This document shows, one piece after another, positions 4,261 through 54,919 of a stretch of 64,000 bases of DNA. The position numbers and the translations under genes were made by a program. The notes beneath the pieces were generated by a model. That model was not told the DNA's origin, did no database searches, and saw only the letters and a program-made list of their open reading frames with translations. The DNA is from an uncultured Gammaproteobacteria bacterium (lineage in GTDB: Bacteria; Patescibacteriota; Microgenomatia; UBA8517): positions 762-64,761 of the forward strand of contig CAYSZS010000002.1 of the NCBI GenBank assembly GCA_964435575.1. Direction: 5' to 3'. Positions within the stretch are counted from its first letter, which is position 1. Every line of letters starts with the position of its first letter.

Positions 4261-4270
4261 GTATTTTTAA

Positions 4271-4310
4271 GCTGAGATAGCCAAGGTGGTCACGGCGGGC
4301 GCCTGAAGAA
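4271..4310 (+). repeat. tRNA-Phe 5' half fragment, copy 2 (through the anticodon loop)
   Basis: GCTGAGATAGCCAAGGTGGTCACGGCGGGCGCCTGAAGAA versus intact GCTGCGGTAGCCAAGGTGGTCACGGCGGGTCTCTGAAGAA. Confidence 0.65.
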
Positions 4311-4347
4311 CAATTACAATTTATCAGGCAACATGTAAACTTAACGT

Positions 4348-4776: not shown

Positions 4777-4839
4777 CCAAGGTGGTCACGGCGGGTCTCT
4801 GAAGAAGATCAGATTCTGGTTCGATTCCAGACCGCAGCA
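4767..4839 (+). tRNA. tRNA-Phe(GAA) with an unusual 11-nt D-loop
   Basis: Acceptor GCTGCGG/CCGCAGC, anticodon stem GGTCT/AGATC with loop CTGAAGA, T-arm TCTGGTTCGATTCCAGA. Confidence 0.8.
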
Positions 4840-4859
4840 CACTTGAAAGGCAGGTTTCT

Positions 4860-4931
4860 GCGGGAGTAGTACAGTGGTAGTACGCTTCCTTGCCAAGGAA
4901 GAGGTCGCGGGTTCAAATCCCGTCTCCCGCT
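4860..4931 (+). tRNA. tRNA-Gly(GCC)
   Basis: GCGGGAG..GTACAGTGGTAGTAC..CTTCC-TTGCCAA-GGAAG..GCGGGTTCAAATCCCGT-CTCCCGC-T. Confidence 0.85.
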
Positions 4932-4936
4932 CAGAA

Positions 4937-5974: not shown

Positions 5975-6068
5975 ATTAATACGCTTAAAAATATCGATTA
6001 TTTAGATGTACTTGTCAACTACGAAATGAAAAGTTAATAAATTTTTGATAAAATACAGAGATATTATT

Positions 6069-6143
6069 GCCCCTGTAGCTCAATGGATAGAGCGGCTCCC
6101 TTCTAAGGAGTAGATGAGAGTTCGATTCCCTCCAGGGGCACCA
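6069..6143 (+). tRNA. tRNA-Arg(TCT), CCA encoded
   Basis: GCCCCTG..GCTCAATGGATAGAGC..GCTCC-CTTCTAA-GGAGT..TTCGATTCC..CAGGGGC-A-CCA. Confidence 0.85.
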
Positions 6144-6153
6144 TTTGTGCAAG

Positions 6154-7299: not shown

Positions 7300-7362
7300 G
7301 TTTGGAATTATATCAAAGAAGACTTCCTCCCACTCAAAGTTAGAAGCTAAATAAGCTTTTGG

Positions 7363-7746
7363 TTATTTTCTCTTATCCATGTACTGCCAAGCTTTGTATT
7401 GGACAAAATTAGCAATAACTGCAATTCCGGCAACGTACAGATAGCTTGCAATGCCGACACCGGTTATAAAGGCAAATCTGGCAATTAACCAAACAGTTGC
7501 AAAATTCATGACCAAATATGCCAGCATCATTGGCACGTTTTCTTTATACGGATACTCCAAGTCTTTTAAGAAAGCTTCGGTATGCCATAGCACTAAGTTC
7601 CAGATAAACCCGCTAAAGACGATTGCCTGATATGGCGCAAAGATGCTATTTCCGATGCTAACTGCGTTGGGTAAAAAAAGATTTGCCAAGTACAAAATTG
7701 CCGAGTTAATTAGCCAGAAACCTAAAAATTTCTGATAGCGTTTCAT
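7363..7746 (-). CDS. Hypothetical membrane protein
   Basis: Start at MKRYQKF, preceded by an AGGAGGGGGTGAG Shine-Dalgarno. 4 hydrophobic helices. Confidence 0.5.
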   Translation of the reverse strand: MKRYQKFLGFWLINSAILYLANLFLPNAVSIGNSIFAPYQAIVFSGFIWNLVLWHTEAFLKDLEYPYKENVPMMLAYLVMNFATVWLIARFAFITGVGIASYLYVAGIAVIANFVQYKAWQYMDKRK

Positions 7747-7942
7747 ATTCTCACCCCCTCCTATGGGATAGCTCACTTAGGAGTATCTAATGGGACCATG
7801 TTGGATAGCTTCGCCTACAACGCAAAGCGGTGCCAAGCTATGCTTATCCAACTGTGACCCTTACTTCTTTGCCAAAACTTATCTAAATTCAGTATAATAT
7901 AATTCAAGAGTTGAAAAAATAAGCAATACTGATGAGAAAATT

Positions 7943-8015
7943 GCCTCTGTAGCTCAACGGATAGAGCACCTGTCTTCGGAACAGGGAATGAGGGTTCGAT
8001 TCCCCCCAGAGGCAC
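7943..8015 (+). tRNA. tRNA-Arg(TCG)
   Basis: GCCTCTG..GCTCAACGGATAGAGC..CCTGT-CTTCGGA-ACAGG..GGGTTCGATTCCCC..CAGAGGC-A. Confidence 0.85.
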
Positions 8016-8180
8016 TGAAGGCAATTTTCGAATTTACTTAGATCCAGACAATAATACTGCAGAGGAAGGTAAGCCGGCACCCAAACATACTCCTAGTCCC
8101 GATTTTTTATATAATTCAAGAAATTAATCTCTCTTTTAGTTATTGACATAAGTTACCTGTAATGTGTTATATAACATAAA

Positions 8181-9902
8181 GTGAAGTTTATTATTGTCTC
8201 CGGTGGTGTACTATCTGGTCTCGGTAAGGGAGTAACTACGGCTTCAATTGGCCTCCTTCTTAAATCCCGCGGAATAAAAGTTACTGCCATGAAGTGTGAT
8301 ATGTACCTGAATATTGATGCTGGTACTATGAACCCTATTGAGCACGGTGAAGTCTTTGTTACCCACGACGGAGTTGAAACGGATCAAGACTTGGGTCATT
8401 ATGAACGCTTTATCAATGAAATTTTAACCAGGGAAAATTATTTGACAAACGGTCAGGTTTACAGGATTGTTTTGGACAAGGAAAGAGCTCTCGAGTACGG
8501 AGGTAAGTGCGTAGAGCCTTATCATCAAATACCTCCTGAAATAATTTTAAGATGGATTGCAGCAGGGCGAGTCCATAACGCCGACGTAGTTTTAATCGAA
8601 TTGGGCGGAACCGTTGGAGAGTATGAAGGACTTTTGTTTTTTGAAGCTGTTCGAAGAATTAAATTGAAAAGCCCCATGGATGTCATTTTGATTCATGTAG
8701 GCTATCTTCCTGTTCCTCCTTCAATCGGAGAGCTAAAATCAAAACCAATTCAACAGTCGGTTCAGATTTTAAATAGTTTAGGTTTAACGCCTGATATTAT
8801 AGTTGGGCGTGCAGAAAAAGAAATCGACCAAAAAAGGAAAGAAAAAATAGCTCTAGCATCCGGTGTTTTAGTAGAAAATATTATTTCAAACCCTGACGTT
8901 AATAGTATTTATGAAATCCCGATTGTTTTAAGAAAACAAAAGTTAGATGAAATAATTATTAAACAATTGGGTTTGAAAGCAAAAAGAGAAGATCTTCGGG
9001 ATTGGGAAATAATGCTGGAAAAATCCAAGAAAATCCGAGACGTTGTAAAAATTGGAATTGTCGGCAAATATCAAAAAACAGGTGATTATACTCTCGAAGA
9101 CAGTTACGTTTGTGTTGTTGAGAGTCTAAAACATGCAGGATTACATTTTAATGTACAACCGCGGTTTTCTTGGATTGATTCGGAAAGTTTGGAAGACTTA
9201 ACAGATTCTGAGATTAAGGATCGTTTGGGGGGAATGGATGCGATAGTGGTTCCTCAAGGGTGGGGAAGGCGTGGAGTCGAGGGGAAAATTAAAGCTGCAA
9301 AATATGCTCGGGAAAATAAACTTCCCTACCTTGGTCTTTGTTTTGGCATGCAAATGGCATCAATTGAGTTTGGCAGAAATGCCGTCGGACTTAAAAAAGC
9401 AAATTCTTCAGAGGTGGATCCAAGGACTCCTCATCCTGTTATTCATATAATGCCTAATCAACGAGATTATTTGAATAAAAAACAATATGGCGGAACGATT
9501 CGCCTTGGCGCTTGGCCCTGCGTAATTAGAAAAGGCACACTACTTGAAAAAGCTTATAAAAAATTTGGCGGAGGAAAATTCAGACCTTGGTACCAACCCA
9601 ATCCCCTGTTTAAAAACAAATCACCAATCACTAACCCGCCTGCCGGACGGGCAGGTCACGAATCACTAATCTTCGAGCGTCACCGCCACAGATACGAGTT
9701 TAATAATAAATACAAAAGGCTGTATGAAAAGAAAGGATTTGTTTTTTCAGGGACTTCACCGGACGGAAAGCTAGTTGAAGCAATTGAGTTGAAAGAACAT
9801 CCCTTTTTTGTCGGGACTCAATTCCACCCGGAATATTTGAGCCGTCCCCTATCCCCACATCCAATATTCTTATCCTTTATTGAAGCTATTGTGAATAAAT
9901 AG
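8181..9902 (+). CDS. pyrG: CTP synthase
   Basis: N-terminal synthetase domain (VSGGVLSGLGKG) and C-terminal GATase (GLCFGMQ); 573 aa; GTG start. Confidence 0.95.
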   Translation: MKFIIVSGGVLSGLGKGVTTASIGLLLKSRGIKVTAMKCDMYLNIDAGTMNPIEHGEVFVTHDGVETDQDLGHYERFINEILTRENYLTNGQVYRIVLDKERALEYGGKCVEPYHQIPPEIILRWIAAGRVHNADVVLIELGGTVGEYEGLLFFEAVRRIKLKSPMDVILIHVGYLPVPPSIGELKSKPIQQSVQILNSLGLTPDIIVGRAEKEIDQKRKEKIALASGVLVENIISNPDVNSIYEIPIVLRKQKLDEIIIKQLGLKAKREDLRDWEIMLEKSKKIRDVVKIGIVGKYQKTGDYTLEDSYVCVVESLKHAGLHFNVQPRFSWIDSESLEDLTDSEIKDRLGGMDAIVVPQGWGRRGVEGKIKAAKYARENKLPYLGLCFGMQMASIEFGRNAVGLKKANSSEVDPRTPHPVIHIMPNQRDYLNKKQYGGTIRLGAWPCVIRKGTLLEKAYKKFGGGKFRPWYQPNPLFKNKSPITNPPAGRAGHESLIFERHRHRYEFNNKYKRLYEKKGFVFSGTSPDGKLVEAIELKEHPFFVGTQFHPEYLSRPLSPHPIFLSFIEAIVNK

Positions 9903-10024
9903 TAAAATATACATGTATTCGTAATTATTTAAACAAAATTCCGTAGGAATTTTGAGAGGAGAAATTACGAAACGATAAGCAATAAGCGTAAGCGTATTGT
10001 GATAAGTGAAGTATATTTCGACGA

Positions 10025-10112
10025 GCCGAGGTGGCGGAATTGGTAGACGCGAGGGCCTTAAGAGCCCTTGTCCCGATGGGACGTGGGGGTTCGAGTCCCC
10101 CTTTCGGCACCA
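10025..10112 (+). tRNA. tRNA-Leu(TAA), type II, CCA encoded
   Basis: GCCGAGG..GCGGAATTGGTAGACGC..AGGGC-CTTAAGA-GCCCT, long variable arm, T-arm GGGGGTTCGAGTCCCCC, CCA. Confidence 0.9.
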
Positions 10113-10195
10113 CGGAGTGTGGCTCAGTTGGCAGAGCGCGCGCTTTGGGAGCGCGAGGTCCCCGGTTCGAATCCGGGCACTCCGACTCAATATTA
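10113..10195 (+). tRNA. tRNA-Pro(TGG), immediately abutting tRNA-Leu
   Basis: CGGAGTG..GCTCAGTTGGCAGAGC..CGCGC-TTTGGGA-GCGCG..CCCGGTTCGAATCCGGG-CACTCCG-A. Confidence 0.85.
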
Positions 10196-10249
10196 TTTGT
10201 TAAAAAGTTGTAAGCTTAAGCGGGCCTGCCCGCCGAAGCTTCAGCGTAG

Positions 10250-10323
10250 GCGGGATTAGTTGAGCGGTTCAACATTTGCTTTCCAAGCAAAGAAGAGGGG
10301 TTCGACTCCCCTATCCCGCTCCA
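10250..10323 (+). tRNA. tRNA-Gly(TCC), CCA encoded
   Basis: GCGGGAT..GTTGAGCGGTTCAAC..TTTGC-TTTCCAA-GCAAA..AGGGGTTCGACTCCCCT-ATCCCGC-T-CCA. Confidence 0.85.
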
Positions 10324-10381
10324 CTAGCATTAAGGGACAAGCTCTGCTTATAACGCCCCCAGCTGTGCGAAGAGAAGGAAG

Positions 10382-11329
10382 TTACTTTTCTTTTCCGACT
10401 ATAATGATTACGTCGTAAGTGGAGTCTTCTTCAAGAGTAGTATCGGATTTAACGACGTCATAAGTATCTGAAAGAGCACTCCTTATTTCATCAAAGACTT
10501 TTTCGGACAAATCTTTTTTTAGACTGATAGAAGTAGCGGTATAGTCGTATGACTGGGCATTTCCGGTTGTTATTTTATCTTCCATAAAACCACTTTCTGT
10601 GAGCAAATCTTTTGCCTTCCCCGCTACCCCTGCTGTTCCGGAGCCGTTAAGAACGCTGAGAGTTAGAGTGCTTATATCAACCTCTGTCTCCGGCTCCTGA
10701 GTCGGGCTGGGCGTTGAAGTTTCCTCCTTTTCAGGAGTTTCACTAATAGATTCCTCGCTAACCGATTGTTTATAATAGAAAATTCCTCCTACCAAAGCTC
10801 CCAAGATAAGAAGAATGATTAGAGTAAAAACTATAAACTTTGTATTTGGTCCGCCTTTTTTCTCTACCTCTTTTGTCGTATCCGGTCTGACTTCTTTGAG
10901 CCACTCTTTTATTTCGTCGGAGGATACATCCTCTTTCCCCTTTCCTTTTTCCTCGGTCATTTCTTGAGTAGGTGTTTCAGATTCAGACAGATCTTCCTTT
11001 TCCTTTTGAGGCTCCGGAGTTAGAACGCTTTCACTGGACTTGGCGGCACCCTCTGCTCCTGAAGCGATATCAGACGATTTTTGAGAATCAAGCTGACTAA
11101 ATGACGTTATTTTCGGAGTATCCTGAGAAGTTGATGCTCGAAGCTTGGTTTCTTCCTCATCTCTTGGTTTTGTTTCAGCTATACTTTCCGTAGATTCTTT
11201 CGCTGGAAGTTGAGTTTCAACTTCTTCCGGTTCTTCACTTATCTCCTCTACTTTTATTTTTGGTTTTGTCGCTTTGGTTTTATCAGCCATGCTTTTACCA
11301 TTGTGAAACATTTGGGGTTGCTTTGTCAA
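10382..11329 (-). CDS. LytR_C (LytR/CpsA/Psr C-terminal) domain protein with acidic disordered N-terminus and one TM segment
   Basis: C-terminal VLNGSGTAGVAGKAKDLL...GNA...TT pattern typical of LytR_C. E/S/T-rich low-complexity N-terminus. TM segment FIVFTLIILLILGALVGGIFYY. Confidence 0.55.
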   Translation of the reverse strand: MTKQPQMFHNGKSMADKTKATKPKIKVEEISEEPEEVETQLPAKESTESIAETKPRDEEETKLRASTSQDTPKITSFSQLDSQKSSDIASGAEGAAKSSESVLTPEPQKEKEDLSESETPTQEMTEEKGKGKEDVSSDEIKEWLKEVRPDTTKEVEKKGGPNTKFIVFTLIILLILGALVGGIFYYKQSVSEESISETPEKEETSTPSPTQEPETEVDISTLTLSVLNGSGTAGVAGKAKDLLTESGFMEDKITTGNAQSYDYTATSISLKKDLSEKVFDEIRSALSDTYDVVKSDTTLEEDSTYDVIIIVGKEK

Positions 11330-11370
11330 TACACCTGGGATTTGATAAAATACAAGGTGTAATTATTCAA

Positions 11371-11444
11371 GGTGGTGTGTGCCGAACGGTTTAGGCGCTG
11401 CTTTGTGGAGGCAGTTTTAGCGGGTTCGACTCCCGTACACCACC
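11371..11444 (+). tRNA. tRNA-His(GTG) with genomically encoded G-1
   Basis: Extra 5' G pairing with discriminator C (8-bp acceptor G-GTGGTGT/ACACCAC-C). Anticodon stem CTGCT/GGCAG with loop TTGTGGA. T-arm GCGGGTTCGACTCCCGT. Confidence 0.85.
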
Positions 11445-42456: not shown

Positions 42457-43308
42457 TTGTATATTTATTTAATGGAAGACCAAGAGCCAAAAATGACGCC
42501 GCAAAAAGGTGAAACGACAGTTCACCAAGAGCAACCTAGTCCAATGCCTAAAATGGACACCGAACCGCCGCAGTCTCCTGAGCCGTCGTCGCACTTTACT
42601 CCGCCATCTCTAAAAACCGGCTTGGGGTTTAGGATTTTTGTCATATTATCTTTAATTATTGTTGCGGCTATATATGGAGGAGTCGTATATCTTTATAGTC
42701 AAAATCAGAAAATCAAAAAAGGCGAGACAAGCGAAAATATTAACTCAAACTTAACTCCGACCTCCACTCCGACCCCGTCCTTCTCCCCCGATCAGGTTAA
42801 AATTAAAAACGGCAGTGTGGTTAGGGAAATTCCCGGCGGAGAAACAACTATTCTGGTTGATAAAGAAAATTACGATTCTACAGGCATAACAGGATTTGCA
42901 AAAGTTGTAGTCTCTCCCGATGAAACAAAAATTTGCTTTGAGTCCTGGCCGCCTGCGCCGGAACCTGCTTTATATATTGCCGATATAGACGGAAGTGAGG
43001 TGTCTGAAGTAAGTCCCAATAGGCAGAATTGTGTCTGGGTTCCCGACTCCCAAAAAATTATGTATGTCAACTCTTCTTCAAAAACGACCCCTGCCAATAT
43101 TTATCTATTTTCCCCGACCGATGAGGTAGAAACAAACTTAACCAAAGATAGCGTTAGCGAGGGAACAGTTAGGCGTTACGAGATTGTAGGATTCTCGGCA
43201 GACGGCGGGAAAATAATTTGTACTTACGAGGATGTGGGGGGAACTGATGAGGGAATGGGAGGAGAATGCGAAATAGACTTAAGTACCCTTGCGGTTAACT
43301 TCCTTTAA
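42457..43308 (+). CDS. Membrane-anchored periplasmic protein with Pro-rich N-terminus and PD40/WD40-like beta-propeller repeats
   Basis: TM segment FRIFVILSLIIVAAIYGGVVYLY. SPDETKICFES...LYIADIDGSE repeats. 3' end overlaps the convergent SipW-like gene by 30 nt. Confidence 0.4.
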   Translation: MYIYLMEDQEPKMTPQKGETTVHQEQPSPMPKMDTEPPQSPEPSSHFTPPSLKTGLGFRIFVILSLIIVAAIYGGVVYLYSQNQKIKKGETSENINSNLTPTSTPTPSFSPDQVKIKNGSVVREIPGGETTILVDKENYDSTGITGFAKVVVSPDETKICFESWPPAPEPALYIADIDGSEVSEVSPNRQNCVWVPDSQKIMYVNSSSKTTPANIYLFSPTDEVETNLTKDSVSEGTVRRYEIVGFSADGGKIICTYEDVGGTDEGMGGECEIDLSTLAVNFL

Positions 43309-43935
43309 ATAGTCAACTTCATTTTTAATTAGGTAAATTGAAGGCGCAGCTATAAAAATCAGAAATCCGGGGAGCGTTTTTAGGGCGACGTCGAAATAAC
43401 CCATAAAGGGGATGATTAATACAACTTTACCCAAGATTTCACTTCTTTTCACTCTTACCGGATCGGGTTGGGAATTCGCATCCCCTTTGGTTATAAAATA
43501 ACTTGCGTCTTTCTCATTGACTTTATCAATAATTCGATGGGTAACCGCTTTTCCGCTGACAAGGCTTGTTTTAGGGTTTACTTCTTTATAGGTTATAATG
43601 TCCTCTTTCGAGTAAGATAGAGAAGGTAACGAAACCACTATGCTTCCGGGATCAATTCCCGGCGACATTGAATTTGTGGTAATTGAAGAAATTCTGACGC
43701 CGCTAGCTTTTTCGGAATACTTGGTGAGTGTAAATACTGCAATTATTCCAAGATAAACAATAAAAAACGCCGGGATTAGATTTTCGAATACTCTTTCAAT
43801 ATAAAAATCGTATTCAAAGTCGATGGCGCGAATAATGATTTTTTTTATTTTCGGTTTTAGTTTATTCCAAAAAGAAAAAAACGTGTCCATAAACCCGTAT
43901 GAGTCGCGAAGATATTCGTAAGTGCTATAACGCAT
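43279..43935 (-). CDS. SipW-type (archaeal-like) signal peptidase I, S26 family
   Basis: N-terminal TM segment. TNSMSPGIDPGSIVV (Ser box), THRII (His), GDAN box. C-terminal TM segment. Confidence 0.7.
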   Translation of the reverse strand: MRYSTYEYLRDSYGFMDTFFSFWNKLKPKIKKIIIRAIDFEYDFYIERVFENLIPAFFIVYLGIIAVFTLTKYSEKASGVRISSITTNSMSPGIDPGSIVVSLPSLSYSKEDIITYKEVNPKTSLVSGKAVTHRIIDKVNEKDASYFITKGDANSQPDPVRVKRSEILGKVVLIIPFMGYFDVALKTLPGFLIFIAAPSIYLIKNEVDYLKEVNRKGT

Positions 43936-44040: not shown

Positions 44041-44697
44041 CTAGATAACCAAGTCTTTAGCCAGTTTCTTCGCCCGTTTTTTAAAAAACTTCTTCAGTTC
44101 ATTGAGAGTTAATGGTTTTAGCATTTTGGGTAAGTATTCAAACTCCTCAACTGCCAGAAAATCGGCAGCTAAAGTTAAAGGATCGCGTTCAGTCCGGAAT
44201 TTCACTTTTACCCCCTCAATTAGGTCCCACACAGTATATTCATCAAGTAAAAAGTAAAGATCAACGTAATCTTTGACTTCGCTACGCTGGTTCATGAGCA
44301 GCAGTTTATTAACAGCGATATCTAGTAGACTGTCTACCGTTACTTTTTTATAGCTAGTCCCTGGTTCTAATCTTTTGTATGGATAATATGCGAAGTCTAA
44401 TTTTAATTTCTTGCCGCCGTCAAAATTCAAGAGGTAAATAAAAGTGTCTTCTGCCCGTTGTGGTTGAATAGTAAACTTTAACTGCTTTCCCCATTCTAAA
44501 AGAAAGGAAAATAGCATTTGATTGTCAAACCTTTTATCTGCGAAGAAATCCAAATCAAGACTTTCACGATGTTTGAGATAGACTTCACTAAGTGCCGTTC
44601 CTCCTGAAAAGTAAAAGTTGTTGGTAAGAAAAGAGTTAGCGGCGATTTTTACGAAAATACTTTTCTGCTCTGGTGTCAGTATTGTTACTTCCCCCAT
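44041..44697 (-). CDS. AbiEii/DUF1814-like nucleotidyltransferase (putative type IV toxin)
   Basis: FSGGTALSEVYLKHRESLDLDF matches the pol-beta NTase GG...DxD motif of AbiEii. Confidence 0.55.
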   Translation of the reverse strand: MGEVTILTPEQKSIFVKIAANSFLTNNFYFSGGTALSEVYLKHRESLDLDFFADKRFDNQMLFSFLLEWGKQLKFTIQPQRAEDTFIYLLNFDGGKKLKLDFAYYPYKRLEPGTSYKKVTVDSLLDIAVNKLLLMNQRSEVKDYVDLYFLLDEYTVWDLIEGVKVKFRTERDPLTLAADFLAVEEFEYLPKMLKPLTLNELKKFFKKRAKKLAKDLVI

Positions 44698-44885: not shown

Positions 44886-45099
44886 AAGATAATTGTATAA
44901 CTTCGTAGCAAAAGAGGCAAATTCATGTGATGGTCGCCTACATTTAGTAAGGTCAATTATATAACTTAAAAAATGATGTTGTTTTATTTATTAAGTATCA
45001 GTTGACAGGGCAAAAATGTGATGTTAGTCTAAATATACATTTTTTCTTTCAGTTATATACGTCTCCTGCCCCGAGATTATTGTCCCATATTATAGTTTG

Positions 45100-46530
45100 A
45101 TGAAGAGAATTTTAATTTCTGTCATAACTTTAGGATTAGTAGCTGCTTTAGCGGTGAGTATAACAGGCTCCTTTTTTTCTGACACCGAAACGTCAAAAGA
45201 TAATATACTTCAGGCAGGAGAACTTGATCTAAAAATAGACAATACCAGTTATTACAACGGTAAACCCTATCCCGACGCATCGTGGGAACCCGATGATCTT
45301 CCAGGGCACCTTTTTTTTAATTTTCAGGATTTAAAACCGGGTGACTGGGGTGAAGATACAATTTCTTTGCGGGTTGACGATAACGACGCCTGGGCTTGTA
45401 TGAAAATAACCCATACCGAGGATGACGACGAGACTTGTAACGAACCAGAATTAAAAGACGATCCAACCTGTGATGATCCCGACGATGATAAAAAAGACGG
45501 AGAATTAGGGTCCCATCTTTCTTTTATCTTCTGGGTTGACGACGGAGATAATGTTTTAGAGAAAGATGAAGAAGAAGGAATAATAAGGCAACAGGATTTG
45601 GTTGGCAATGTTTTTGACGGAAAGATTATAAACCTCGCAGATGCATTGGGAGGAGTTTTGGGTTTAGCGGGACCGCTTGTGGGTAGTAAAACTTACTACA
45701 TCGGCAAAGCCTGGTGCTTCGGCGAAATGACTATTACTCCTCTTCCCGATAATACCGGTGTAAGTCCGGAAGTTGATTCGGGAATAAAATGCGACGGGGC
45801 TGAGCTGAATAACGAAACCCAAACAGACCAGGTTTTGGTCGATTTTGAATTTAGCGCTTATCAATCAAGAAATAATCCCAATTTTACTTGTTCAGGTGAA
45901 AAACCGTCAGGTACTCCAACCCCGACATTAACACCCACTCCCCCGCTCGCCTGTAATAAGGCAGATGTAATGCTCGTTCTCGATAGATCGGGAAGTATTA
46001 GTTCTACGGAGCTTGTGCAATTAAAAACTGCTGCTAAGGATTTCGTTGATTCTTTGACACTGGCTTTGGACGGAAATCACGCAGGAAAATCAAGTTTTGC
46101 AACAACAGGAACTTTAAATCATCACTTGACGAGCGATCCCACTAGTCTCAAGGCAGCAATTGACGCAATGATTTCAGGTGGCTGGACGAACCTTAAAGAA
46201 GGCATTGACCTTGCAAAAACGGAGTTGGATAATCCAGGCGATGGACATGACAGAGCCGATGGTGTCTCCCTTGACAAGATGATTGTCATCACAGACGGTA
46301 ATCCTAATAGACCACTAGACGGTGATCCCCCACCTGACGTAGATGCAAAAAATGCAGCTGATGTAGCAAAAGCAGCCGGGGTAGAAATCTTTGTGGTTGG
46401 AGTTGGCAGCGATGTTGATGCTACTTATCTAACAAACGATATAGCAACTGCTGGAGCTGGTCATTATTATTCCGCATCAGATTACTCAGGCTTACAGACA
46501 ATTCTTTCCGGACTTGATCTTTGCGATTAA
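45100..46530 (+). CDS. TasA/camelysin-like secreted protein with SipW-cognate signal peptide and C-terminal vWA (MIDAS) domain
   Basis: N-terminus MKRILISVITLGLVAALAVSITGSFFSDTETS..N.LQAGELDL. Core FNFQDLKPGDWGEDTISL, FWVDDGDNV, YYIGKAWCFGE. PT-linker, then DRSGSIS...ITDGNPN vWA. Confidence 0.7.
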   Translation: MKRILISVITLGLVAALAVSITGSFFSDTETSKDNILQAGELDLKIDNTSYYNGKPYPDASWEPDDLPGHLFFNFQDLKPGDWGEDTISLRVDDNDAWACMKITHTEDDDETCNEPELKDDPTCDDPDDDKKDGELGSHLSFIFWVDDGDNVLEKDEEEGIIRQQDLVGNVFDGKIINLADALGGVLGLAGPLVGSKTYYIGKAWCFGEMTITPLPDNTGVSPEVDSGIKCDGAELNNETQTDQVLVDFEFSAYQSRNNPNFTCSGEKPSGTPTPTLTPTPPLACNKADVMLVLDRSGSISSTELVQLKTAAKDFVDSLTLALDGNHAGKSSFATTGTLNHHLTSDPTSLKAAIDAMISGGWTNLKEGIDLAKTELDNPGDGHDRADGVSLDKMIVITDGNPNRPLDGDPPPDVDAKNAADVAKAAGVEIFVVGVGSDVDATYLTNDIATAGAGHYYSASDYSGLQTILSGLDLCD

Positions 46531-46786: not shown

Positions 46787-46915
46787 ACCCTTACGAAATT
46801 ACTTTTACCTTTTGCATAACCAATTAATATTTTAAATGGTTCTATAAGGGGTAAAAACCCTTAATAGCCAAGCTTTTACTAAAAAAGCCTCTGGATTAGA
46901 TTGTTGGTGAAAAAG

Positions 46916-47845
46916 ATGAAGAAAATTTTATTAAGTTTATTTGTAATTGGTGTCGTATCAGTAGCAGGAGTCCTCGCAACCCGAGCATTTTTCAGTGATA
47001 CCGAGACATCAGTCGGCAATACATTCGTAGCCGGAGACATTGATCTACAGATTGATAACGAAAGCTATGCAATAGACTGTACTATTCCTGACGGAGACGG
47101 TAATCCTCCAGCAGAATGTAAAGGTGTACTGGCAGCAAGCTCTAATACGTCATGGCAGCTTACCGACTTAACAGTTGAGAAGTTTTTTGACTTTGTAGAC
47201 CTTAAACCGGGAGATTATGGCGAAGACACAATATCCGTTCACGTCGGAAGTAATGATGCTTGGGTTTGTGCCTCAGCCCGTATTACGGAAGATCAAGACA
47301 ATTCCTGTACAGATCCTGAACAAACAGATGAATTAGTTGCTTGCGTTAATCCAAATGGAAACGGAGAGCTTGATGAAGACCTAAATTTCGCTTTCTGGGT
47401 TGACGATGGAGATAACGTATTTGAAGCTTGTCCAGAGGGAACGGGTGAATGTGAGGATGAAAAAGTCTTTTTATTGGGGCCTCTCGAAGGACTAGGTACT
47501 CAAGGACAAATCGCTCTTGCTGATACCCAAGGCGGTGTACTTGGTGCAGGAAATCCTATCCCTGGCGATACAACTTTCTATATAGGTAAAGTGTGGTGTT
47601 TTGGAGAATTAACTCCTGAACCCAAAGATTCTCATGATGTGCAGGGAGCTCCTATCAACGGAACTCCAGTCGAAAGGGGAACCGGTTGGCTTTGTGATGG
47701 GACACTAGTTGATAACGCTGCTCAAACTGACAGTGTTGTTGGTGATTTACAATTTTATGCAGAACAGGCAAGACATAATGATGAGTTTTTGTGTAGTAAA
47801 GATTACGAACCTGTTTGGCCTACGCCAACACAAACATCTGATTAG
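46916..47845 (+). CDS. TasA/camelysin-like secreted protein with SipW-cognate signal peptide; Cys-rich
   Basis: MKKILLSLFVIGVVSVAGVLATRAFFSDTETSVGNTFVAGDIDLQIDN. FDFVDLKPGDYGEDTISV, FWVDDGDNV, FYIGKVWCFGE. SD GGTGA 5 nt upstream. Confidence 0.7.
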   Translation: MKKILLSLFVIGVVSVAGVLATRAFFSDTETSVGNTFVAGDIDLQIDNESYAIDCTIPDGDGNPPAECKGVLAASSNTSWQLTDLTVEKFFDFVDLKPGDYGEDTISVHVGSNDAWVCASARITEDQDNSCTDPEQTDELVACVNPNGNGELDEDLNFAFWVDDGDNVFEACPEGTGECEDEKVFLLGPLEGLGTQGQIALADTQGGVLGAGNPIPGDTTFYIGKVWCFGELTPEPKDSHDVQGAPINGTPVERGTGWLCDGTLVDNAAQTDSVVGDLQFYAEQARHNDEFLCSKDYEPVWPTPTQTSD

Positions 47846-48092: not shown

Positions 48093-48130
48093 AGCTATCA
48101 AACCGGAAGGAGGTGAATATATTTAAAATT

Positions 48131-49315
48131 ATGAAAAAAGCTCTATTGAGTTTATTTACTATTGGTGTAATTGGTTTAGTTGTTGTTGCTGTAACACAGT
48201 CCTTTTTCTCCGACACCGAGACTTCGACCGGAAACGTTTTAACCGCTGGAGCTATTGATTTAAAGATAGATAGCGAGTGTACATATAATGGAGAAAGATC
48301 AGAACAGTGTGGCACTTGGGGTCCGGTTGATTTAACAAACGAAAAGTTTTTCAACTTCTTTGACTTGAAACCCGGAGATTATGGCGAAAACACAATAAGC
48401 TTAGACCTTTCCAGTAATCCCGCACACGCTTGCGTAATTGTCGAAAACATGCAGGATGATGATCTGGGTCTGACCGAGCCGGAAAGCGAAGATGGGGATG
48501 TTAGCGACGGTCCTTTTTACGGAGAATTATCTTCCGAACTTCGCTTTTTCACTTGGGCCGATAACGGTCCAGAGCAAAATTCTTGCGATAACGTATGGCA
48601 AGAAGGGGAACTTCCATTGTTTTCTAATGCCGAAGGTCCTGCAAGCGATGTATTGGATGGGAGAAGTTATTACCTTGGAAAGCTAGATCCGGGGAAAAGC
48701 TGTATAGGTGTTTACTGGTGTTACGGGACAATGGCGGTTGGTCCGGGAAACGCCTTGAGTTGTAACGGAGCGCCTGTAAATAACGTTTCACAAACTGATG
48801 CTCTTACCGCCGATATAAGGTTTTATGTAGAGCAATACAGAAATAATCCTAACTTCGTTTGTCCTCTTCCTGAAAAGAGGCTTGTGCTGGAAAATAAAAT
48901 TCCAGATGTCTGGACAGTAATAGAAGATAATAGGTCTGCGACATTAACATGGGCGGGCGACGGTCCAACATTTGACTTCAGCTCTACGCTTATTGCACAA
49001 GGACTGGAGGCAAATACAAAATACAGCTTGATTTATTATGCAGATCCTTGGGAGGGAGATAATCCGGGAGCATTTCTAGGTACTGGTATTTCAAATGGAA
49101 GCGGTGATCTTACTATCGCAGGTAATGTCAACTTAGGTTTTGATTTACCGCATCCATCTGATGCCAACTATCCGACCGGAGCAAAAATCTGGCTAGTATT
49201 GGCAAGTGATTATAATAGCGGTCTGGAATTAACCGGGCCGATGACCGGATGGCAGCCTACAAGGTACTTATTTGAGACAAAGCTGATCAGGTACGACGAT
49301 ACGGATGCGCCTTAA
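48131..49315 (+). CDS. TasA/camelysin-like secreted protein with SipW-cognate signal peptide and ~170-aa C-terminal extension
   Basis: MKKALLSLFTIGVIGLVVVAVTQSFFSDTETSTGNVLTAGAIDLKIDS. FNFFDLKPGDYGENTISL, YYLGK, CYG. NVSQTDALTADIRFYVEQYRNNPNFVC. Confidence 0.7.
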   Translation: MKKALLSLFTIGVIGLVVVAVTQSFFSDTETSTGNVLTAGAIDLKIDSECTYNGERSEQCGTWGPVDLTNEKFFNFFDLKPGDYGENTISLDLSSNPAHACVIVENMQDDDLGLTEPESEDGDVSDGPFYGELSSELRFFTWADNGPEQNSCDNVWQEGELPLFSNAEGPASDVLDGRSYYLGKLDPGKSCIGVYWCYGTMAVGPGNALSCNGAPVNNVSQTDALTADIRFYVEQYRNNPNFVCPLPEKRLVLENKIPDVWTVIEDNRSATLTWAGDGPTFDFSSTLIAQGLEANTKYSLIYYADPWEGDNPGAFLGTGISNGSGDLTIAGNVNLGFDLPHPSDANYPTGAKIWLVLASDYNSGLELTGPMTGWQPTRYLFETKLIRYDDTDAP

Positions 49316-49463: not shown

Positions 49464-49693
49464 CATAATCAACATCCGATGTTGTTTAGCTTGTAACATC
49501 GGGTATTGATGAAAAGATTATATATTTATGAAAATAAGTAAGTTTATACAAAATACTTTAATCGGGTTTCTTTGTATAGTCTTCTTCATTTTTTCAGCAT
49601 TAGCAACATATCTTCTATTAGATTTATTTAAGTTTAATTTACCGATATTGCAACGTAATCAATATCCGATTTTGAATACATTTGAATATCGGG
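49464..49693 (+). mobile_element. Miniature non-autonomous (MITE-like) derivative of the IS200-like element at 18405-19197: both terminal motifs present, no transposase
   Basis: LE CATAATCAACATCCGATGTTGTTTAGCTTGTAACATCGGG. RE CCGATATTGCAACGTAATCAATATCCGATTTTGAATACATTTGAATATCGGG. Matches the IS ends at ~80% identity. Confidence 0.55.
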
Positions 49694-51234
49694 ATATTAA
49701 GCTCCCTAAAGCCTTTATCGTCCAGTCGGGTTCAATGGAACCTGCTATTAAAACCGGAAGCATTGTCATAACTAAAAAGGAAGAAATCTATAATCAGGGA
49801 GAAATAATTTCCTATACAAAGGGTTCGAAAAATATCATAACTCACAGAATTCAAGTCAAAAACTATCCTGACGGTATCAATTCTGATCCAGTCTATTTAA
49901 CTGCCGGAGACGCCAACGAGGATTTTGATTCAGGAAGTATAACCAGTGAACAGATAGTAGGTAAGGTCGTTTTGACACTCCCCTATTTGGGCTACGTTGC
50001 CGACTTTGCCAAACAGCCCTACGGCTTTTTGCTTTTGGTCATAGTTCCGGCGACAATTGTTATTTACGAAGAGTTAAAGGGTTTATTAAAGGAAATCTTT
50101 AAAACATTATCTATCATGAAAAGAAAGCTATTTCGTCGTAAGGGTCGTACCCTTAAGTACGACTTAAAGGGTACGACCCTCAAGGCTAAAAACAACGGTC
50201 TGCCTAAAGCTAGTGCAATAGTTCCGATTTTCGGTGCAGCACTTGTTTTTACCGGTCTCGCCTCGTCCTTCTTCTCCGACATAGAAATTTCAATAGGAAA
50301 TTTATTTCAGGCAGGTGATTGGAGTCCCCCCATTGCACAAACATTAGTAATAAATGAAGTATTGTACAAAACAAATTGCACTGTACCTCAAAATAAACAA
50401 TGGATTGAGATATGGAACGGTTTTGATTTCACGGTTAATCTCCAGGATTGGAGTTTAAGAGATGGAGAAGGAAACACAATTCAAATAATTAATTCTGTAA
50501 CTCCCCTCGCCCCCGGAAAATTCGCATTATTGTCCAAATCAAGCGCAACATGGAACGACCAATGTTACGGACCGCTCCTTAGTGATGTTGTTCAAGTCCA
50601 ACTAGGTGGGACAATAAATATTGCAACAGAATCTGGAGCATTTAAATTATTAGATAGCAATCTTGATATCGTAGATGAGGTTTTCTATGGTCCTGACCCT
50701 GCATCAGCAAGTGCCGGTCTTAACTTCTCGTTTGAAAGGGAAGTTTTAGGCCAAAAAACCGGCGGAGTATTTAATGCAATTGATTTTTCTGAAAGAAAAC
50801 CATCAATAGCAGGTTTTGCAATACCTCAAAATCAGGATGTAGTTATTAATGAATTCATCGTCCACGATGGCGGTACCGGACTGGGTAATGATTGGGTTGA
50901 ACTTTATAACAAAACGGGCAGCAGTGTTGACATAAGTGGATGGACTCTCCGTGATACAACCGGTATTTTTCACACTGTTCCAGCTTCCACAACTTTATTA
51001 AATGGCGACTGGTACACTGTTTACAATAGTTCAAACAGACTCGGAAATAGTGGCGACAAAATTTATTTATTTGATTCTGGTAGTAATTTAAAAGATGGAA
51101 TCTCATATTTTCAGTTCTTGCCATCGGTTGGTAGTTCTGTTGGAAGAAATACAGATGGTGGTAACGCTTGGTCAGTTTTTACAGTTCCAACAGATGATAA
51201 TACTAATATAAATCCGACATCACCTTGGCCATAA
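49528..51234 (+). CDS. In-frame fusion: SipW-type signal peptidase I (res 1-196) fused to a protein with SipW-cognate signal peptide and two lamin-tail domains (LTD)
   Basis: SGSMEPAIKTGSIV, ITHRIQ, GDAN, TM segment. Internal MKRKLFRRKGR...IVPIFGAALVFTGLASSFFSDIEISIGNLFQAG (ATG at 50116, same frame, no intervening stop). LTD1 VINEVLY...WIEIWN...WSLRD. LTD2 VINEFIV...WVELYN...WTLRD. Confidence 0.65.
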   Translation: MKISKFIQNTLIGFLCIVFFIFSALATYLLLDLFKFNLPILQRNQYPILNTFEYRDIKLPKAFIVQSGSMEPAIKTGSIVITKKEEIYNQGEIISYTKGSKNIITHRIQVKNYPDGINSDPVYLTAGDANEDFDSGSITSEQIVGKVVLTLPYLGYVADFAKQPYGFLLLVIVPATIVIYEELKGLLKEIFKTLSIMKRKLFRRKGRTLKYDLKGTTLKAKNNGLPKASAIVPIFGAALVFTGLASSFFSDIEISIGNLFQAGDWSPPIAQTLVINEVLYKTNCTVPQNKQWIEIWNGFDFTVNLQDWSLRDGEGNTIQIINSVTPLAPGKFALLSKSSATWNDQCYGPLLSDVVQVQLGGTINIATESGAFKLLDSNLDIVDEVFYGPDPASASAGLNFSFEREVLGQKTGGVFNAIDFSERKPSIAGFAIPQNQDVVINEFIVHDGGTGLGNDWVELYNKTGSSVDISGWTLRDTTGIFHTVPASTTLLNGDWYTVYNSSNRLGNSGDKIYLFDSGSNLKDGISYFQFLPSVGSSVGRNTDGGNAWSVFTVPTDDNTNINPTSPWP

Positions 51235-51279: not shown

Positions 51280-52446
51280 ATGATAAAGATTAGAAAAATC
51301 AGAGCCATGGGAATAAGAAGGATTAGTGCAATTCTTCTTCTGCCGTTTGTTTTAGTGGGAACATTTCTTGTGTATAAAAATTCCCAAATTACAAGATATG
51401 CTTATGGGGAGGGCGACCCTTTGATTTTAACCTATGATCCTGAGGGTCCTCTTCCTGATCCACCCATGTTTGTTGTCACCAATATGCTCCCGGGTGACTC
51501 TAAAACAAAGGACTTTAATGTCAAAAATGCATCAACTGAGGATGAGTCGGTTACTATGGATTTTATCAAAACTGACGAGGAAAAAGATTTTGCTAACATA
51601 TTGGATGTAGAAGTAACAGAACTTCCCTCAACCGTTATCTTTCAAGGCAAACTTCAGGCTCTTTTTGACGCTCCCCTGTTTAACCTTGGCAACTTCCCTG
51701 CCGGAAGCGACAAAAGTTTCAGAGTCAAAGTAAAATTCCCGGAGAATGCAGGAAATGAGTACCAAAATGCCATGGTCATGTTTGATATAAAATGGCAAAC
51801 AGAACAACCCGAAATAGAAATCCCTGAAGACTGTTCATTTTTGGAATCAGGAATTACCAGGGTTGTTGAAGGAACAGAGGGCAATGACTTCATTATTGGT
51901 AACAAGGAATCTGAGTTATTCATTCTAAAAGGCGGTAACGATATAGTTTTTGGAGGTAAAGGCAACGATATAATCCTCGGAGGCGAGGGTAACGACCCTA
52001 GGCTTGACGGGAGTGACGGAAATGATTGCATTATAGGAGGCCCAGGTAATGACCATCTTGACGGGAGTGATAATAATGATGTTCTTTTCGGAAATGAGGG
52101 AAATGATAACCTTGACGGTGGCGGTAATGATGATCTGATAAAGGCAGGTACAGGAAACGACAATGTAGACGGCGGAGCAGGAAATGACGTAATTTACGGC
52201 GAGGAAGGAAACGATAATATTGAAGGCGGAAGCGGGAATGACAACATTTGGGGAGGAATTGGTAACGATACTATAAAAGGAGAAAGCGGAAATGATAATT
52301 TATATGGAGAAGAAGGGAATGATAACCTACAGGGAGGAAGCGGTATGGACTTTTTGGATGGCGGAGCCGATACGGACACTCTTCATGGAGGTTCAAGTAC
52401 GGATACCTGTGTCAACGGAGAATCAAATACTTCCTGCGAGCTCTAG
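51280..52446 (+). CDS. Secreted protein with TasA-like beta-sandwich region followed by RTX-type calcium-binding nonapeptide repeats
   Basis: Signal-anchor. FVVTNMLPGDSKTKDFNVKNAS (TasA-like core). About 14 GGxGNDxLx repeats (GGNDIVFGGKGNDIILGGEGND...). Confidence 0.65.
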   Translation: MIKIRKIRAMGIRRISAILLLPFVLVGTFLVYKNSQITRYAYGEGDPLILTYDPEGPLPDPPMFVVTNMLPGDSKTKDFNVKNASTEDESVTMDFIKTDEEKDFANILDVEVTELPSTVIFQGKLQALFDAPLFNLGNFPAGSDKSFRVKVKFPENAGNEYQNAMVMFDIKWQTEQPEIEIPEDCSFLESGITRVVEGTEGNDFIIGNKESELFILKGGNDIVFGGKGNDIILGGEGNDPRLDGSDGNDCIIGGPGNDHLDGSDNNDVLFGNEGNDNLDGGGNDDLIKAGTGNDNVDGGAGNDVIYGEEGNDNIEGGSGNDNIWGGIGNDTIKGESGNDNLYGEEGNDNLQGGSGMDFLDGGADTDTLHGGSSTDTCVNGESNTSCEL

Positions 52447-52792: not shown

Positions 52793-53476
52793 TCAAGCTG
52801 CGTAAGCTTGTTGTTTTTCTTTACTTATAATTAAACCTTCTTTCTCTAGTTTTTTCATGCTATTTATAATAAAAGTGTGATGTTCACAAGAGATAATCTT
52901 TTTATTAACTAATTTCATTAGGGCAAGGCTGGCCGTTTCTCTGGAAATTCCTGCGATATTTGCGATATCTTGATGCGTTAAAGGCAGATTTATTGCAATT
53001 TTTCCATCCTGCACGCGTTCTCCAAACCTTTTTGCAGAAAGATAAATAGCGCCGATTACTCTTTTATGTGCGTTTCCGCATAGCATGTATTCGATATTTG
53101 CGAGTACCCCGTCCAAACCTACCAATATTCTTCGAGTCAGTTCAAAAAGAACGTCCGGATTTTCTTTAAGATAAGTCAGAACTACACTTTTTGGGGCTCT
53201 GTGAATAATCGTATCAGTTTGAGCTTGGAAAAAGTAAGAATTTGGAATTCCAGCTATAACCCACATCATGGGGAAATAGGTTCCGGGTTTAAAAATGTTC
53301 AAAGTGAGTTCTCTGCCGTTTTCGAAAATTGTATTTAATTTAACAAACCCTTCCTTTATATAGTAAACGCCTTGGGGTTTGTCTTCGGGACGAAGGATTG
53401 TTTGATTTTTTTTATAGGATATAGTTTTATATTTTGAGAAAAAGCTCCTTAACTTTCCAGGTACGTAATTCTCCAT
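52793..53476 (-). CDS. Crp/Fnr family transcriptional regulator
   Basis: N-terminal cNMP-binding beta-barrel and C-terminal HTH (ISRETASLALMKL). Confidence 0.75.
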   Translation of the reverse strand: MENYVPGKLRSFFSKYKTISYKKNQTILRPEDKPQGVYYIKEGFVKLNTIFENGRELTLNIFKPGTYFPMMWVIAGIPNSYFFQAQTDTIIHRAPKSVVLTYLKENPDVLFELTRRILVGLDGVLANIEYMLCGNAHKRVIGAIYLSAKRFGERVQDGKIAINLPLTHQDIANIAGISRETASLALMKLVNKKIISCEHHTFIINSMKKLEKEGLIISKEKQQAYAA

Positions 53477-53608
53477 TTTTTAAAGTATACGCTTTGTTAG
53501 AAATTTAACAAATAATAAGTTAGTTTTCTAACTGAAATATTTAATCGGACTATATACCGTGTAAAAGTGATTGCTTCATAAAAATCTAAGAGAAAGGGGG
53601 TGAAAATT

Positions 53609-54919
53609 ATGATCAAAAAAATAATTGCAGGAGCAACTGCTGGACTTGCCGGCACTTTACTTTTTGCAGGTCTAGTATTCGCTTTGGTTGGTGATTTACT
53701 CGATACAGTAGGTCTTCCCGGAAACGATAATTGTTCCGTGGCAGGAACCTTTACAGGCACATATTATATGACCATGGAGGGTGGATTCGCAGTAGGTTGT
53801 GCTGGAAATCAGCTCCAAATCTATACTCCTCCTGCGCCCGACGTCGTACCGGGTCTTCCGCCTGATCCTGCGACATTGGTGTCCACACAGACTGTGCTTG
53901 ATGCCGGCGGTAACGCCGTCAACATCAGCGCTTTAGCCTGGGATCCGACAAGGAACAAGGTCTGGGGAGCTTACGACGATAACGTCTATCTCATAGACAT
54001 CGTTGACCCGACTGTCGACGGAAATGCAACAGCAACTTTGCAGTTTAGTCCGTCGGTAAACGCACCAGTAGCAGAAGTTGATCCGTTCGATCTTTTTGGT
54101 AAATTACCAGGAATTACTTTGGTTGACGGGTTAGCCTATGATGGCAACGACGATACTGTCTGGTACACACCGGATGTCCACTGCAATGTTTATCACTTCG
54201 CCTCAGACGGGACATACATTGGTAAAGTAACACCCGAAAACGCAGCGGGTAATTCTGACTGTTCAGTAAGCGGGGTTGTAGTTGGTTCTGCTAACTCACT
54301 CTACATTGGTAGAAACGGTAATAATGAGATAAGAAGAGTTGATAAAACAACAGGAGATTTTATTTCCAATTTCGCTACAACTGCCGGACGGGTTGAGGAC
54401 TTAACTTGCGATCCTGTAACATATGCGCCAAAAGAAGCTGTATTGGCAAAGGACGCATTTAATGTCCTTTACGAAGCCTTTGAAGTGGAAGAGGGCACTT
54501 GTCCATTGCCTGAGCCGAAAGATGAGACGCCTCCAAAGGCTGCCTGTACCGAAACGGTTAATCCTCATGGAGCAACCGTTCCTCCTGCAGGTAAGACTAC
54601 ATTGCCTGGTCCAAGAGGTGGAGATAATGAAGACGGATTCTATGAGCTTTTTGCTGCCGATAACTTGCCGGGTGTAACGATTTGGGTTTCTGACGCATTC
54701 GGTAGCGGTCCTTTCGGACCATTCTTACCAGGAGATAAGGTTAAGATTACCGAAGCACCGGGCGGACCCGCTTCCTCGAAAGCAATGGGAAGTAGTAATG
54801 GTCAAGCAGGGGCAATTCTAACCCACATTACGCTTTTGGGTGACGCTCTGATAACAGCAATAGATGCCGCAGGTAATGCGACAGTTGTAAGTTGTTTGGT
54901 TCCGCCGCCACCGAAATAA
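53609..54919 (+). CDS. Secreted hypothetical protein (G/A/T/D/V-rich, Cys-containing); the gene is visibly more GC-rich than its surroundings
   Basis: SD AAGGGGGTG 6 nt upstream of ATG at 53609. N-terminal hydrophobic signal. No recognisable catalytic motif. Confidence 0.45.
   Translation: MIKKIIAGATAGLAGTLLFAGLVFALVGDLLDTVGLPGNDNCSVAGTFTGTYYMTMEGGFAVGCAGNQLQIYTPPAPDVVPGLPPDPATLVSTQTVLDAGGNAVNISALAWDPTRNKVWGAYDDNVYLIDIVDPTVDGNATATLQFSPSVNAPVAEVDPFDLFGKLPGITLVDGLAYDGNDDTVWYTPDVHCNVYHFASDGTYIGKVTPENAAGNSDCSVSGVVVGSANSLYIGRNGNNEIRRVDKTTGDFISNFATTAGRVEDLTCDPVTYAPKEAVLAKDAFNVLYEAFEVEEGTCPLPEPKDETPPKAACTETVNPHGATVPPAGKTTLPGPRGGDNEDGFYELFAADNLPGVTIWVSDAFGSGPFGPFLPGDKVKITEAPGGPASSKAMGSSNGQAGAILTHITLLGDALITAIDAAGNATVVSCLVPPPPK

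Follow-up and report, generated by a model that had tools for sequence, protein, structure and literature searches.

A gene at 49528..51234 on the plus strand of the DNA analysed here, a stretch of 64,000 nucleotides from contig CAYSZS010000002.1 (the window), encodes a signal peptidase that is joined in one chain to a module of the kind that such enzymes cut. The product of 568 amino acids (aa) combines a SipW-type signal peptidase, an internal signal peptide, a donor-strand-like motif and two lamin-tail domains (LTD). This is a genuine and conserved fusion of an enzyme and a substrate module. In the explanation that we favour, and hold to be somewhat more probable than its opposite, the fusion cuts itself and releases the LTD protein as a nucleator or tip of a fibre, in the manner of TapA of Bacillus subtilis.

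A database search with the fused protein returned 126 homologues, mostly of 320-880 aa and mostly with LTD; the named ones are annotated 'signal peptidase I' of Woesebacteria, Chisholmbacteria or Gottesmanbacteria. P0001, from an ENA record of a 4.4-kb contig, is 100% identical to the fused protein over the aligned part. The window protein and 99 homologues were combined in a family alignment (100 sequences), to which the counts out of 100 given below refer. Its mean column identity is 13%, and an internal hydrophobic segment followed by the motif is present in 100/100 sequences. A search of 1.84 billion cluster representatives (50%-identity clusters) gave 200 matches at E<=1e-30, and 121 of the best 150 representatives hold the internal motif and the peptidase in one chain. 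These results bear on one alternative, namely that a lost stop codon or a frameshift, arising in sequencing or assembly, joined two genes. A single-base error could indeed fuse the separate genes of split lineages, which overlap by 4 nt, and one related locus (L015) shows an apparent frameshift, though within the LTD. Because more than 100 homologues from independent assemblies of Microgenomates, produced by many projects and assemblers, share the fusion, we can exclude a missed stop or frameshift; with the 121 of 150 cluster representatives and the identical P0001 also at hand, an assembly artefact was rejected, and its probability is negligible.

The original prediction had described a single frame running without a stop through the ATG at 50116, and this was borne out: 49528..51234 is one unbroken frame with no competing plus-strand open reading frame (ORF) of at least 40 aa. 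The overlapping ORFs of at least 40 aa are short minus-strand ones only, and a minus-strand ORF of 72 aa spans the junction. The ATG at 50116 encodes Met197, which lies in a basic cytoplasmic linker (residues 183-227, 50074..50208) with 15 Lys and Arg against 2 Asp and Glu. An extra translation start at this codon would give the LTD precursor beside the full-length chain, that is, two proteins from one frame. Such a start would suit the typical basic n-region that follows Met197 (MKRKLFRRKGR), and the split orthologues begin at about the same point. However, the sole upstream AGGA lies 22 nt from the ATG, and no stop is available for a separate short peptidase, so that the fused chain would be made anyway. 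The linker, 30-92 aa long in the homologues, is net positive in 100/100; Met197 is kept in 8/100, and the linker is without any Met in 56/100. Since Met197 is so rarely kept and more than half of the linkers lack Met altogether, the conserved product is a single polypeptide and not two translationally coupled proteins, which settles in favour of the first the choice between one polypeptide and two that the original prediction had left. Internal initiation was rejected as a conserved mechanism on the same count, and we regard the production of two proteins from this frame as highly improbable. Met197 is probably a relic of the start codon of a once separate downstream gene.

The peptidase motifs quoted in the original prediction are all present, together with the transmembrane segments (TMs) on either side of them. 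Residues 62-182 match TIGR02228 (NCBIfam; archaeal-type signal peptidase I) with 83.2 bits against a cutoff of 51.85, and this model is matched by 100/100 fused family members. The extracytoplasmic catalytic domain (residues 60-152, 49705..49983), delimited by TIGR02228, SEC11 alignment and Foldseek, contains SGSMEPAIKTGSIV with Ser69 (49732-49734), ITHRIQ with His106 (49843-49845) and GDAN with Asp128 (49909-49911), and the three residues are invariant in the 100 sequences. The domain aligns to human SEC11C and SEC11A, including the SGSMEP, HR and GD.N blocks that hold Ser, His and Asp; the catalytic residues are Ser-His(-Asp) and not the Ser-Lys dyad of LepB-type enzymes. Ser69, His106 and Asp128 are predicted to remove signal peptides. 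The Bacillus SipW equivalog NF046067 gave 91.6 bits with the fused protein, below its cutoff of 190. The peptidase is SipW-like in kind, a member of the family of archaeal and endoplasmic reticulum (ER)-type signal peptidases I, and not a Bacillus SipW equivalog.

A model of the fused protein was obtained with AlphaFold2 (AF2), with a mean predicted local distance difference test score (pLDDT) of 80.9. Its helices cover residues 2-33, 164-203 and 228-250, residues 208-224 and 254-265 are disordered, and hydropathy peaks at residues 20, 174 and 240 mark TM1, TM2 and TM3. The catalytic domain sits between the first two of these: TM1, the N-terminal membrane anchor of the peptidase (about residues 9-33, 49552..49626), and TM2 (about residues 164-182, 50017..50073), the C-terminal TM typical of SipW/Sec11-type peptidases, which would run from outside to inside and carries the conserved PATI[VI][IV]YEE. 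The best PDB matches of the model are SEC11C/A and lamin Ig folds, with 7p2q/7p2p as the top Foldseek matches and the Ig folds of lamin A/C and B1/B2 also found. Two lamin-tail domains had been predicted, and PF00932 (Pfam) recovers them with 100.3 bits against a gathering threshold of 34.3, in two stretches. The first covers about residues 270-425 (50335..50802; AF2 beta domain 273-423, with Foldseek matches to lamin Ig folds) and the second about residues 434-551 (50827..51180; best PF00932 stretch 434-527, AF2 strands 438-551). From hydropathy, charge and the AF2 model we infer a topology with the N-terminus inside, followed by TM1, the catalytic domain outside, TM2, the basic loop inside, TM3, and the motif and LTDs outside. 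It is the positive-inside rule that would place the catalytic domain and everything beyond TM3 outside the cell.

TM3 (residues 228-247, 50209..50268) comprises the h- and c-regions of the internal SipW-type signal peptide, assigned by a profile of neighbouring signals, the -3/-1 rule and the AF2 helix 228-250. Its position after the peptidase, and not at the precursor N-terminus, is the unusual feature of the fused protein. The segment has a basic n-region, a hydrophobic h-region, small residues at -3 and -1, and then [FY]F.D.E.S..N. Across the fused proteins, position -3 is S/T/A and position -1 is S/A/G, each in 100/100, and the residues beyond the cut site are +1 F/Y, +2 F, +4 D (100/100), +6 E, +8 S, +11 N and +15 A. 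The same pattern was found in the genuine N-terminal signals of 55 TasA-like neighbours, with T/S at -3 and A/S at -1 in 55/55. In the window protein the junction reads GLASSFFSDIEISIGNLFQAG, with F248 at nt 50269, and the mature N-terminal motif FFSDIEISIGNLFQAG (residues 248-263, 50269..50316), which is common to the TasA-like neighbours, is the proposed donor strand. D251 is invariant in the 100 aligned sequences, and F249, E253, N258 and A262 are conserved in at least 90% (A262 in 92%). Cleavage had originally been placed after FSD; the cut is now predicted a few residues upstream, in ASS|FFSD between S247 and F248.

The internal segment had also been called a SipW-cognate signal peptide. 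Its likeness to such signals stood. The curated model TIGR04088 (cognate_SipW; cutoff 19 bits) gave no match to the internal segment of the window protein, whether the whole protein or the segment alone was searched, and it matches inside 15/100 fused family members at E<=0.1. A substitute profile was prepared from the N-terminal signal and motif of 55 TasA-like proteins, all from other loci, and searched against all 464 window ORFs of at least 30 aa. Four of the 464 were matched, namely the ORFs at 46901, 48113 and 45097 (E 6e-23 to 8e-21) and the fused protein at residues 235-264 (E 1.4e-8); the next best ORF has an E of 0.34. The internal segment resembles a signal peptide beyond chance, since an independent profile finds it. 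In a six-frame scan of the whole window the motif was found at the three upstream N-termini and in the fused protein, and nowhere else.

The three upstream genes, all on the plus strand, encode putative substrates of the peptidase and begin with the same signal and FFSDTETS.GN...AG, followed by.IDL.ID, which is absent from the fused protein. The gene at 46901..47845 encodes a TasA/camelysin-like fibre subunit of 314 aa, and that at 48113..49315 a TasA-like subunit of 400 aa with a C-terminal extension and the same signal and motif. At 45097..46530, a SipW-type signal and the motif FFSDTETSKDN are followed by a TasA-like region and a C-terminal von Willebrand factor A (VWA) domain (82 bits); this protein could be an adhesive fibre subunit. 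The 46901 protein reaches 21.5 bits with TIGR04088, above the cutoff. PF12389 matches 24/25 members of its family (best E 1.6e-13), and the window's own protein scores 18.5 bits, below the cutoff of 22.5. A single-sequence search of it against PDB sequences gave no match, and the family profile found TasA as its best, marginal matches there (E ~0.01). The AF2 model of the 46901 protein has a pLDDT of 81.6 and a predicted template modelling score (pTM) of 0.75, and its top three Foldseek matches are TasA (8aur, 5of2, 5of1) with probability 1.0 and TM-scores of 0.45-0.51; AbpA is seventh. After the marginal sequence-profile matches, it was this fold search that settled the protein as TasA-like. 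The pLDDT of FFSDIEISIGNLFQAG is below 50 in the fused monomer model, as is that of the motif arm of the 46901 model (residues 28-45), and such disorder in both monomers is as expected for a donor strand without its acceptor. The JGI name for TasA-like neighbours (P0122, P0133 and others), 'predicted ribosomally synthesized peptide with SipW-like signal peptide', is misleading for proteins of 280-450 aa with a TasA-like fold.

A locus scan with one genome per species found 54 loci, mostly from Patescibacteria, the candidate phyla radiation (CPR), by record title. About 20 locus records are labelled 'uncultured Gammaproteobacteria', 'Pseudomonadales' or 'Saccharibacteria', in mismatch with their gene content, including the TPA_asm records L002, L006, L008, L010, L023, L024, L026 and L027; the taxonomic labels of third-party assemblies with CPR-type gene content look unreliable. 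Among loci with a usable lineage label, the peptidase of Woese-, Chisholm- and Amesbacteria is fused, with one to three TasA-like genes directly upstream. In Berkelbacteria, Moranbacteria, Parcubacteria and Beckwithbacteria a stand-alone peptidase of 183-233 aa ends in a basic tail after TM2, and the next gene, usually with a 4-nt overlap, encodes a signal peptide, GAYFSD..SGN.F..G.W and LTD, sometimes with larger passengers. LTD scores above the Pfam cutoff in 10/10 downstream proteins of split loci, and TIGR04088 matches 6/10 of these split LTD orthologues, two of them above cutoff. The comparison of fused and split forms that the original prediction had proposed thus returns two modules, split in these four lineages, and not one conserved domain. 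The split forms come together as a single clade in a neighbour-joining tree of peptidase domains, drawn without support values, and the fused forms divide into a large group and a small one from Amesbacteria/Microgenomates; mixing is slight. The exceptions are L033 (480 aa, without the motif, among the split forms) and L031, which is cut off at the contig end. In one Chisholmbacteria genome (L015:9860-10666 and 10653-11060), the LTD part shifts frame after a short overlap; this apparent frameshift is either an assembly error or a pseudogene.

Several fused peptidases are without a passenger (L024:9881-10546, L025:9893-10591, L023:9908-10642, L026:390-1193 and L010:9977-10930). Their chains end 19-95 residues past the predicted cut site, with the motif and a low-complexity tail, L024 being the shortest at 19 residues. 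These relatives indicate that the conserved core of the fusion is the motif and not the LTD. On contig DATMWB010000046.1, which bears the label Candidatus Methanoperedens, a further protein, P0110 (L055:744-3431, 895 aa), shows the layout of the fused protein, with other passenger domains and a variant motif. Its internal motif SYSDSVTMSGITLSTG and the LFSSNVNVSGITFSTG of a small pilin-like gene directly upstream (L055:133-696) are matching variants. Over 22 loci the internal motif is closer to the major subunit of its own locus than to those of others (permutation p=0.002, or 0.05 without L055). This co-variation is suggestive, and shared ancestry could give the same result.

The proposed mechanism draws on the Bacillus system. 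TasA, with Phe at P2', is processed by SipW, a dedicated ER-type peptidase, and residues P1'-P4' matter for processing of this type (PMC10269814). The mature protein begins at residue 28, and the donor strand that completes the next subunit consists of its first 11 residues (PMC9674648). The N-terminus of TapA resembles this strand and was modelled to complement TasA (PMC9674648); TapA speeds filament formation by strand donation and has a complete Ig fold of its own, and its gene shares a stop-to-start overlap with sipW (PMC10151520). TapA is also reported to colocalise with the membrane and to anchor fibres (PMC10151520, PMC9674648), and a minimal N-terminal part of it is sufficient in B. 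subtilis, according to work cited in PMC9674648.

The fusion would have arisen when the gene for a dedicated ER/archaeal-type peptidase was joined to the gene that directly follows it in related lineages. The chain would insert as a polyprotein with three TMs, which would bring the A-S-S|F-F-S-D site to the outer membrane face, where Ser69/His106/Asp128 would act. The peptidase domain of the same chain or of a neighbouring one would then cut S247|F248 (nt 50268/50269), a position predicted by analogy with TasA and its Phe at P2' (PMC10269814). TM3 would stay with the peptidase after the cut, and an LTD protein of 321 aa would be released. Its new N-terminus, FFSDIEISIGNLFQAG, would mimic the N-terminal donor-strand arm of the TasA-like subunits encoded directly upstream. 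By analogy with TapA of B. subtilis, it would be a donor-only protein: its strand would enter the first TasA-like subunit, and the fibre formed by the products of the upstream genes would thereby be nucleated or capped, with the LTDs as terminal module. Joined in one chain, peptidase and nucleator would be made at a fixed 1:1 ratio, and nucleation would take place where subunits are processed.

In a different reading the chain stays uncut: TM3 would be a permanent third anchor with the motif tethered to it, the peptidase would serve as membrane anchor or nucleation point of the fibre, and the LTDs would remain on the cell surface. If cut, the passenger-less chains of L024, L025, L023 and L026 would shed merely a peptide of 19-45 residues, for which a tethered strand is the obvious anchor, and the membrane colocalisation and fibre anchoring reported for TapA would fit such a role. 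TM3 itself also offers an argument. P233 (nt 50224-50226) is conserved at 90% in fused TM3 and the preceding P226-K227 pair is conserved as well; both were unseen in eight split LTD signal peptides and in the aligned TasA-like signals, although these were not counted systematically. Against a permanently intact chain, the -3 and -1 positions are small in every family member despite the low mean column identity, which argues for selection for cleavability. The invariant triad must, moreover, cut the same motif in the neighbouring proteins, and a perfect site adjacent to it should be cut; and if the minimal N-terminal part of TapA suffices, as cited in PMC9674648, a short released peptide could work. 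Strict -3/-1 conservation in a divergent family, beside an invariant active site, makes cleavage likelier than permanent tethering. Judged on these sequence features, the chain is probably cut at 247|248, and we consider an uncut chain unlikely.

A cut chain may still release a protein that has no part in the fibre. FFSD...GN..A would then be a recognition element for the peptidase only, and the LTD protein an ordinary surface protein or adhesin. It would suit this role that the motif lies directly after the cut site and includes the P1'-P4' residues that matter in TasA processing (PMC10269814), and that LTD proteins differ from TasA-like ones past the motif (W-x-P-P vs IDLxID). However, conservation extends to +15 (A262), past the usual reach of a peptidase groove, and covers the stretch that is the donor strand in TasA (PMC9674648). 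Synteny with TasA-like genes is also conserved, and the motif tends to track the major subunit of its own locus, a trend that is confounded by phylogeny. A recognition element alone appears to us less likely still than the uncut chain.

Several results weigh against a self-cut fusion that releases a TapA-like nucleator. In addition to the missing TIGR04088 match, the position of the cut site relative to the active site is not confidently modelled by AF2, and the Pro233-bearing TM3 of the fused form is not an ordinary signal peptide. Pro233 may kink TM3 so that the helix can reach the active site in cis. After the cut, the signal peptide would be tethered beside the active site, where it might inhibit the enzyme. 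The nearly absent passengers of L024, L025, L023 and L026 fit a tethered strand at least as well as release. Finally, the LTD protein is not a TapA homologue, as TIGR04087 gave no match for the window protein and reached an E of 0.09 in 1/100 family members; it is at most a functional analogue of TapA. The TapA-like donor-strand role of the LTD protein is put forward by sequence analogy only, and we consider it evenly balanced. More tentatively, and on the doubtful side, the fusion may represent a protease-substrate polyprotein that couples subunit processing to fibre initiation, either through a primer released in cis or through a tethered strand as nucleation or anchor point.

The closest known system is tapA-sipW-tasA of B. 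subtilis. In both, a dedicated ER/archaeal-type signal peptidase is encoded with subunits of the TasA/camelysin family, together with a minor Ig-like protein of non-TasA fold that has a SipW-type signal and a donor-strand-like N-terminus. A stop-to-start overlap of the genes for the minor protein and the peptidase is common to Bacillus (PMC10151520) and the split CPR loci. In contrast to Bacillus, the peptidase and the minor protein are here one polypeptide, with the signal peptide internal as third TM, the peptidase comes first and the minor protein second, and the host belongs to the CPR Microgenomates. The minor protein here carries lamin-tail domains and leaves TIGR04087 unmatched, and the peptidase stays below the Bacillus SipW equivalog cutoff (92 vs 190 bits).

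The original prediction knew of no described SipW-substrate fusion, and in the literature searched no description of a peptidase fused to a substrate-type subunit was found. The nearest is the fusion of signal peptidase I (SPase I) with DUF5305 in AbpX/Tafi loci (bioRxiv 10.64898/2026.01.04.697558), in which a TIGR02228-type SPase I of a donor-strand fibre locus is likewise extended, with extra TMs, by fusion to another component of the locus. DUF5305 is read there as an accessory subunit of the peptidase and not as a substrate, whereas the partner in the window keeps a substrate-type signal, cut site and donor-strand motif and is a free secreted protein in sister lineages. The same preprint on related fibre loci describes tip, minor and anchor subunits (bioRxiv 10.64898/2026.01.04.697558). 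Such Tafi tip and anchor proteins, archaeal AbpB and FimH-type adhesins resemble the LTD protein, in its proposed role, as low-copy subunits with the strand-exchange interface of the major subunit (PMC9245690; bioRxiv 10.64898/2026.01.04.697558) and a different, probably adhesive domain at the fibre end. None of them is described, in the literature searched, as covalently fused to its processing peptidase. No paper found there joins 'lamin tail domain' with TasA or SipW, or Microgenomates/Woesebacteria with signal peptidase and TasA or camelysin. One paper found, and no other, joins signal peptidase and TasA with Patescibacteria, and it does no more than name the phylum as one that has TasA homologues (PMC9245690).

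Two more distant relatives were compared. For residues 63-182, eukaryotic SEC11A and SEC11C give the best matches in both sequence and structure and share Ser-His-Asp; unlike the fused protein, SEC11 carries no fused substrate and acts on unrelated substrates as part of a four-subunit complex. Streptococcus pyogenes SipA, a LepA-type protein of a sortase pilus system, is not known to keep the catalytic residues. It resembles the fused protein in that a signal-peptidase fold takes part in fibre assembly, and its structure 4n31, which by its entry title is a signal-peptidase homologue essential for pilus polymerisation, is among the structural matches. The fused protein differs from it in keeping an invariant catalytic triad.

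Downstream of the fused gene, 51280..52446 on the plus strand encodes a conserved partner with a camelysin/TasA-like domain (PF12389 24 bits, above cutoff), no FFSD motif and RTX repeats (HemolysinCabind). A motif-less TasA-like gene downstream of the peptidase was also found at L010:10937-12007, L013:4941-5765, L015:11118-12161, L021:11017-11583 and L024:10482-11513. The 51280 protein and its counterparts have a hydrophobic N-terminus. Proteins of this type could act as acceptor-only subunits and cap or anchor the fibre at its opposite end. Directly downstream of the fibre cluster, a Crp/Fnr-type regulator (52793-53476, minus strand; cNMP-binding domain and HTH_Crp_2) is encoded, and control of the cluster by this regulator is possible. 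The cluster is also adjoined by a plus-strand gene (53600-54919) for a protein of 439 aa that has a hydrophobic segment at its N-terminus and matches no Pfam or NCBIfam family. Elsewhere in the window, on the minus strand, 44041-44697 and 43279-43935 encode an AbiEii-type nucleotidyltransferase toxin (61 bits) beside a protein of 218 aa without a family match, which may form a type IV toxin-antitoxin pair. The first 11.5 kb (829-11444) hold twelve scattered tRNA genes.

The novelty of the fusion is its architecture and the coupling that this implies; it is a variant of the TapA-SipW-TasA system and not a new kind of system. As a rule, a signal peptidase and the proteins that it cuts are distinct molecules, and a conserved natural fusion offers a compact model for signal-peptide binding by ER/archaeal-type peptidases, with enzyme and a defined site in one chain, given the topology inferred above. 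If the proposed coupling is true, the retained TM3 with its fusion-specific Pro233 would be a built-in third helix able to gate or inhibit the active site, and the primer in passenger-less relatives would be little more than a bare strand. For annotation, the database name 'signal peptidase I' hides a secreted LTD module and a likely surrounding fibre locus. The logic of TapA-SipW-TasA in Bacillus biofilm fibres is extended to the CPR, and the link between peptidase and nucleator that gene overlap hints at in Bacillus is here made covalent. CPR bacteria, which are small and mostly uncultured, are believed to rely on attaching to other cells, and the fibre components here are few and clustered.

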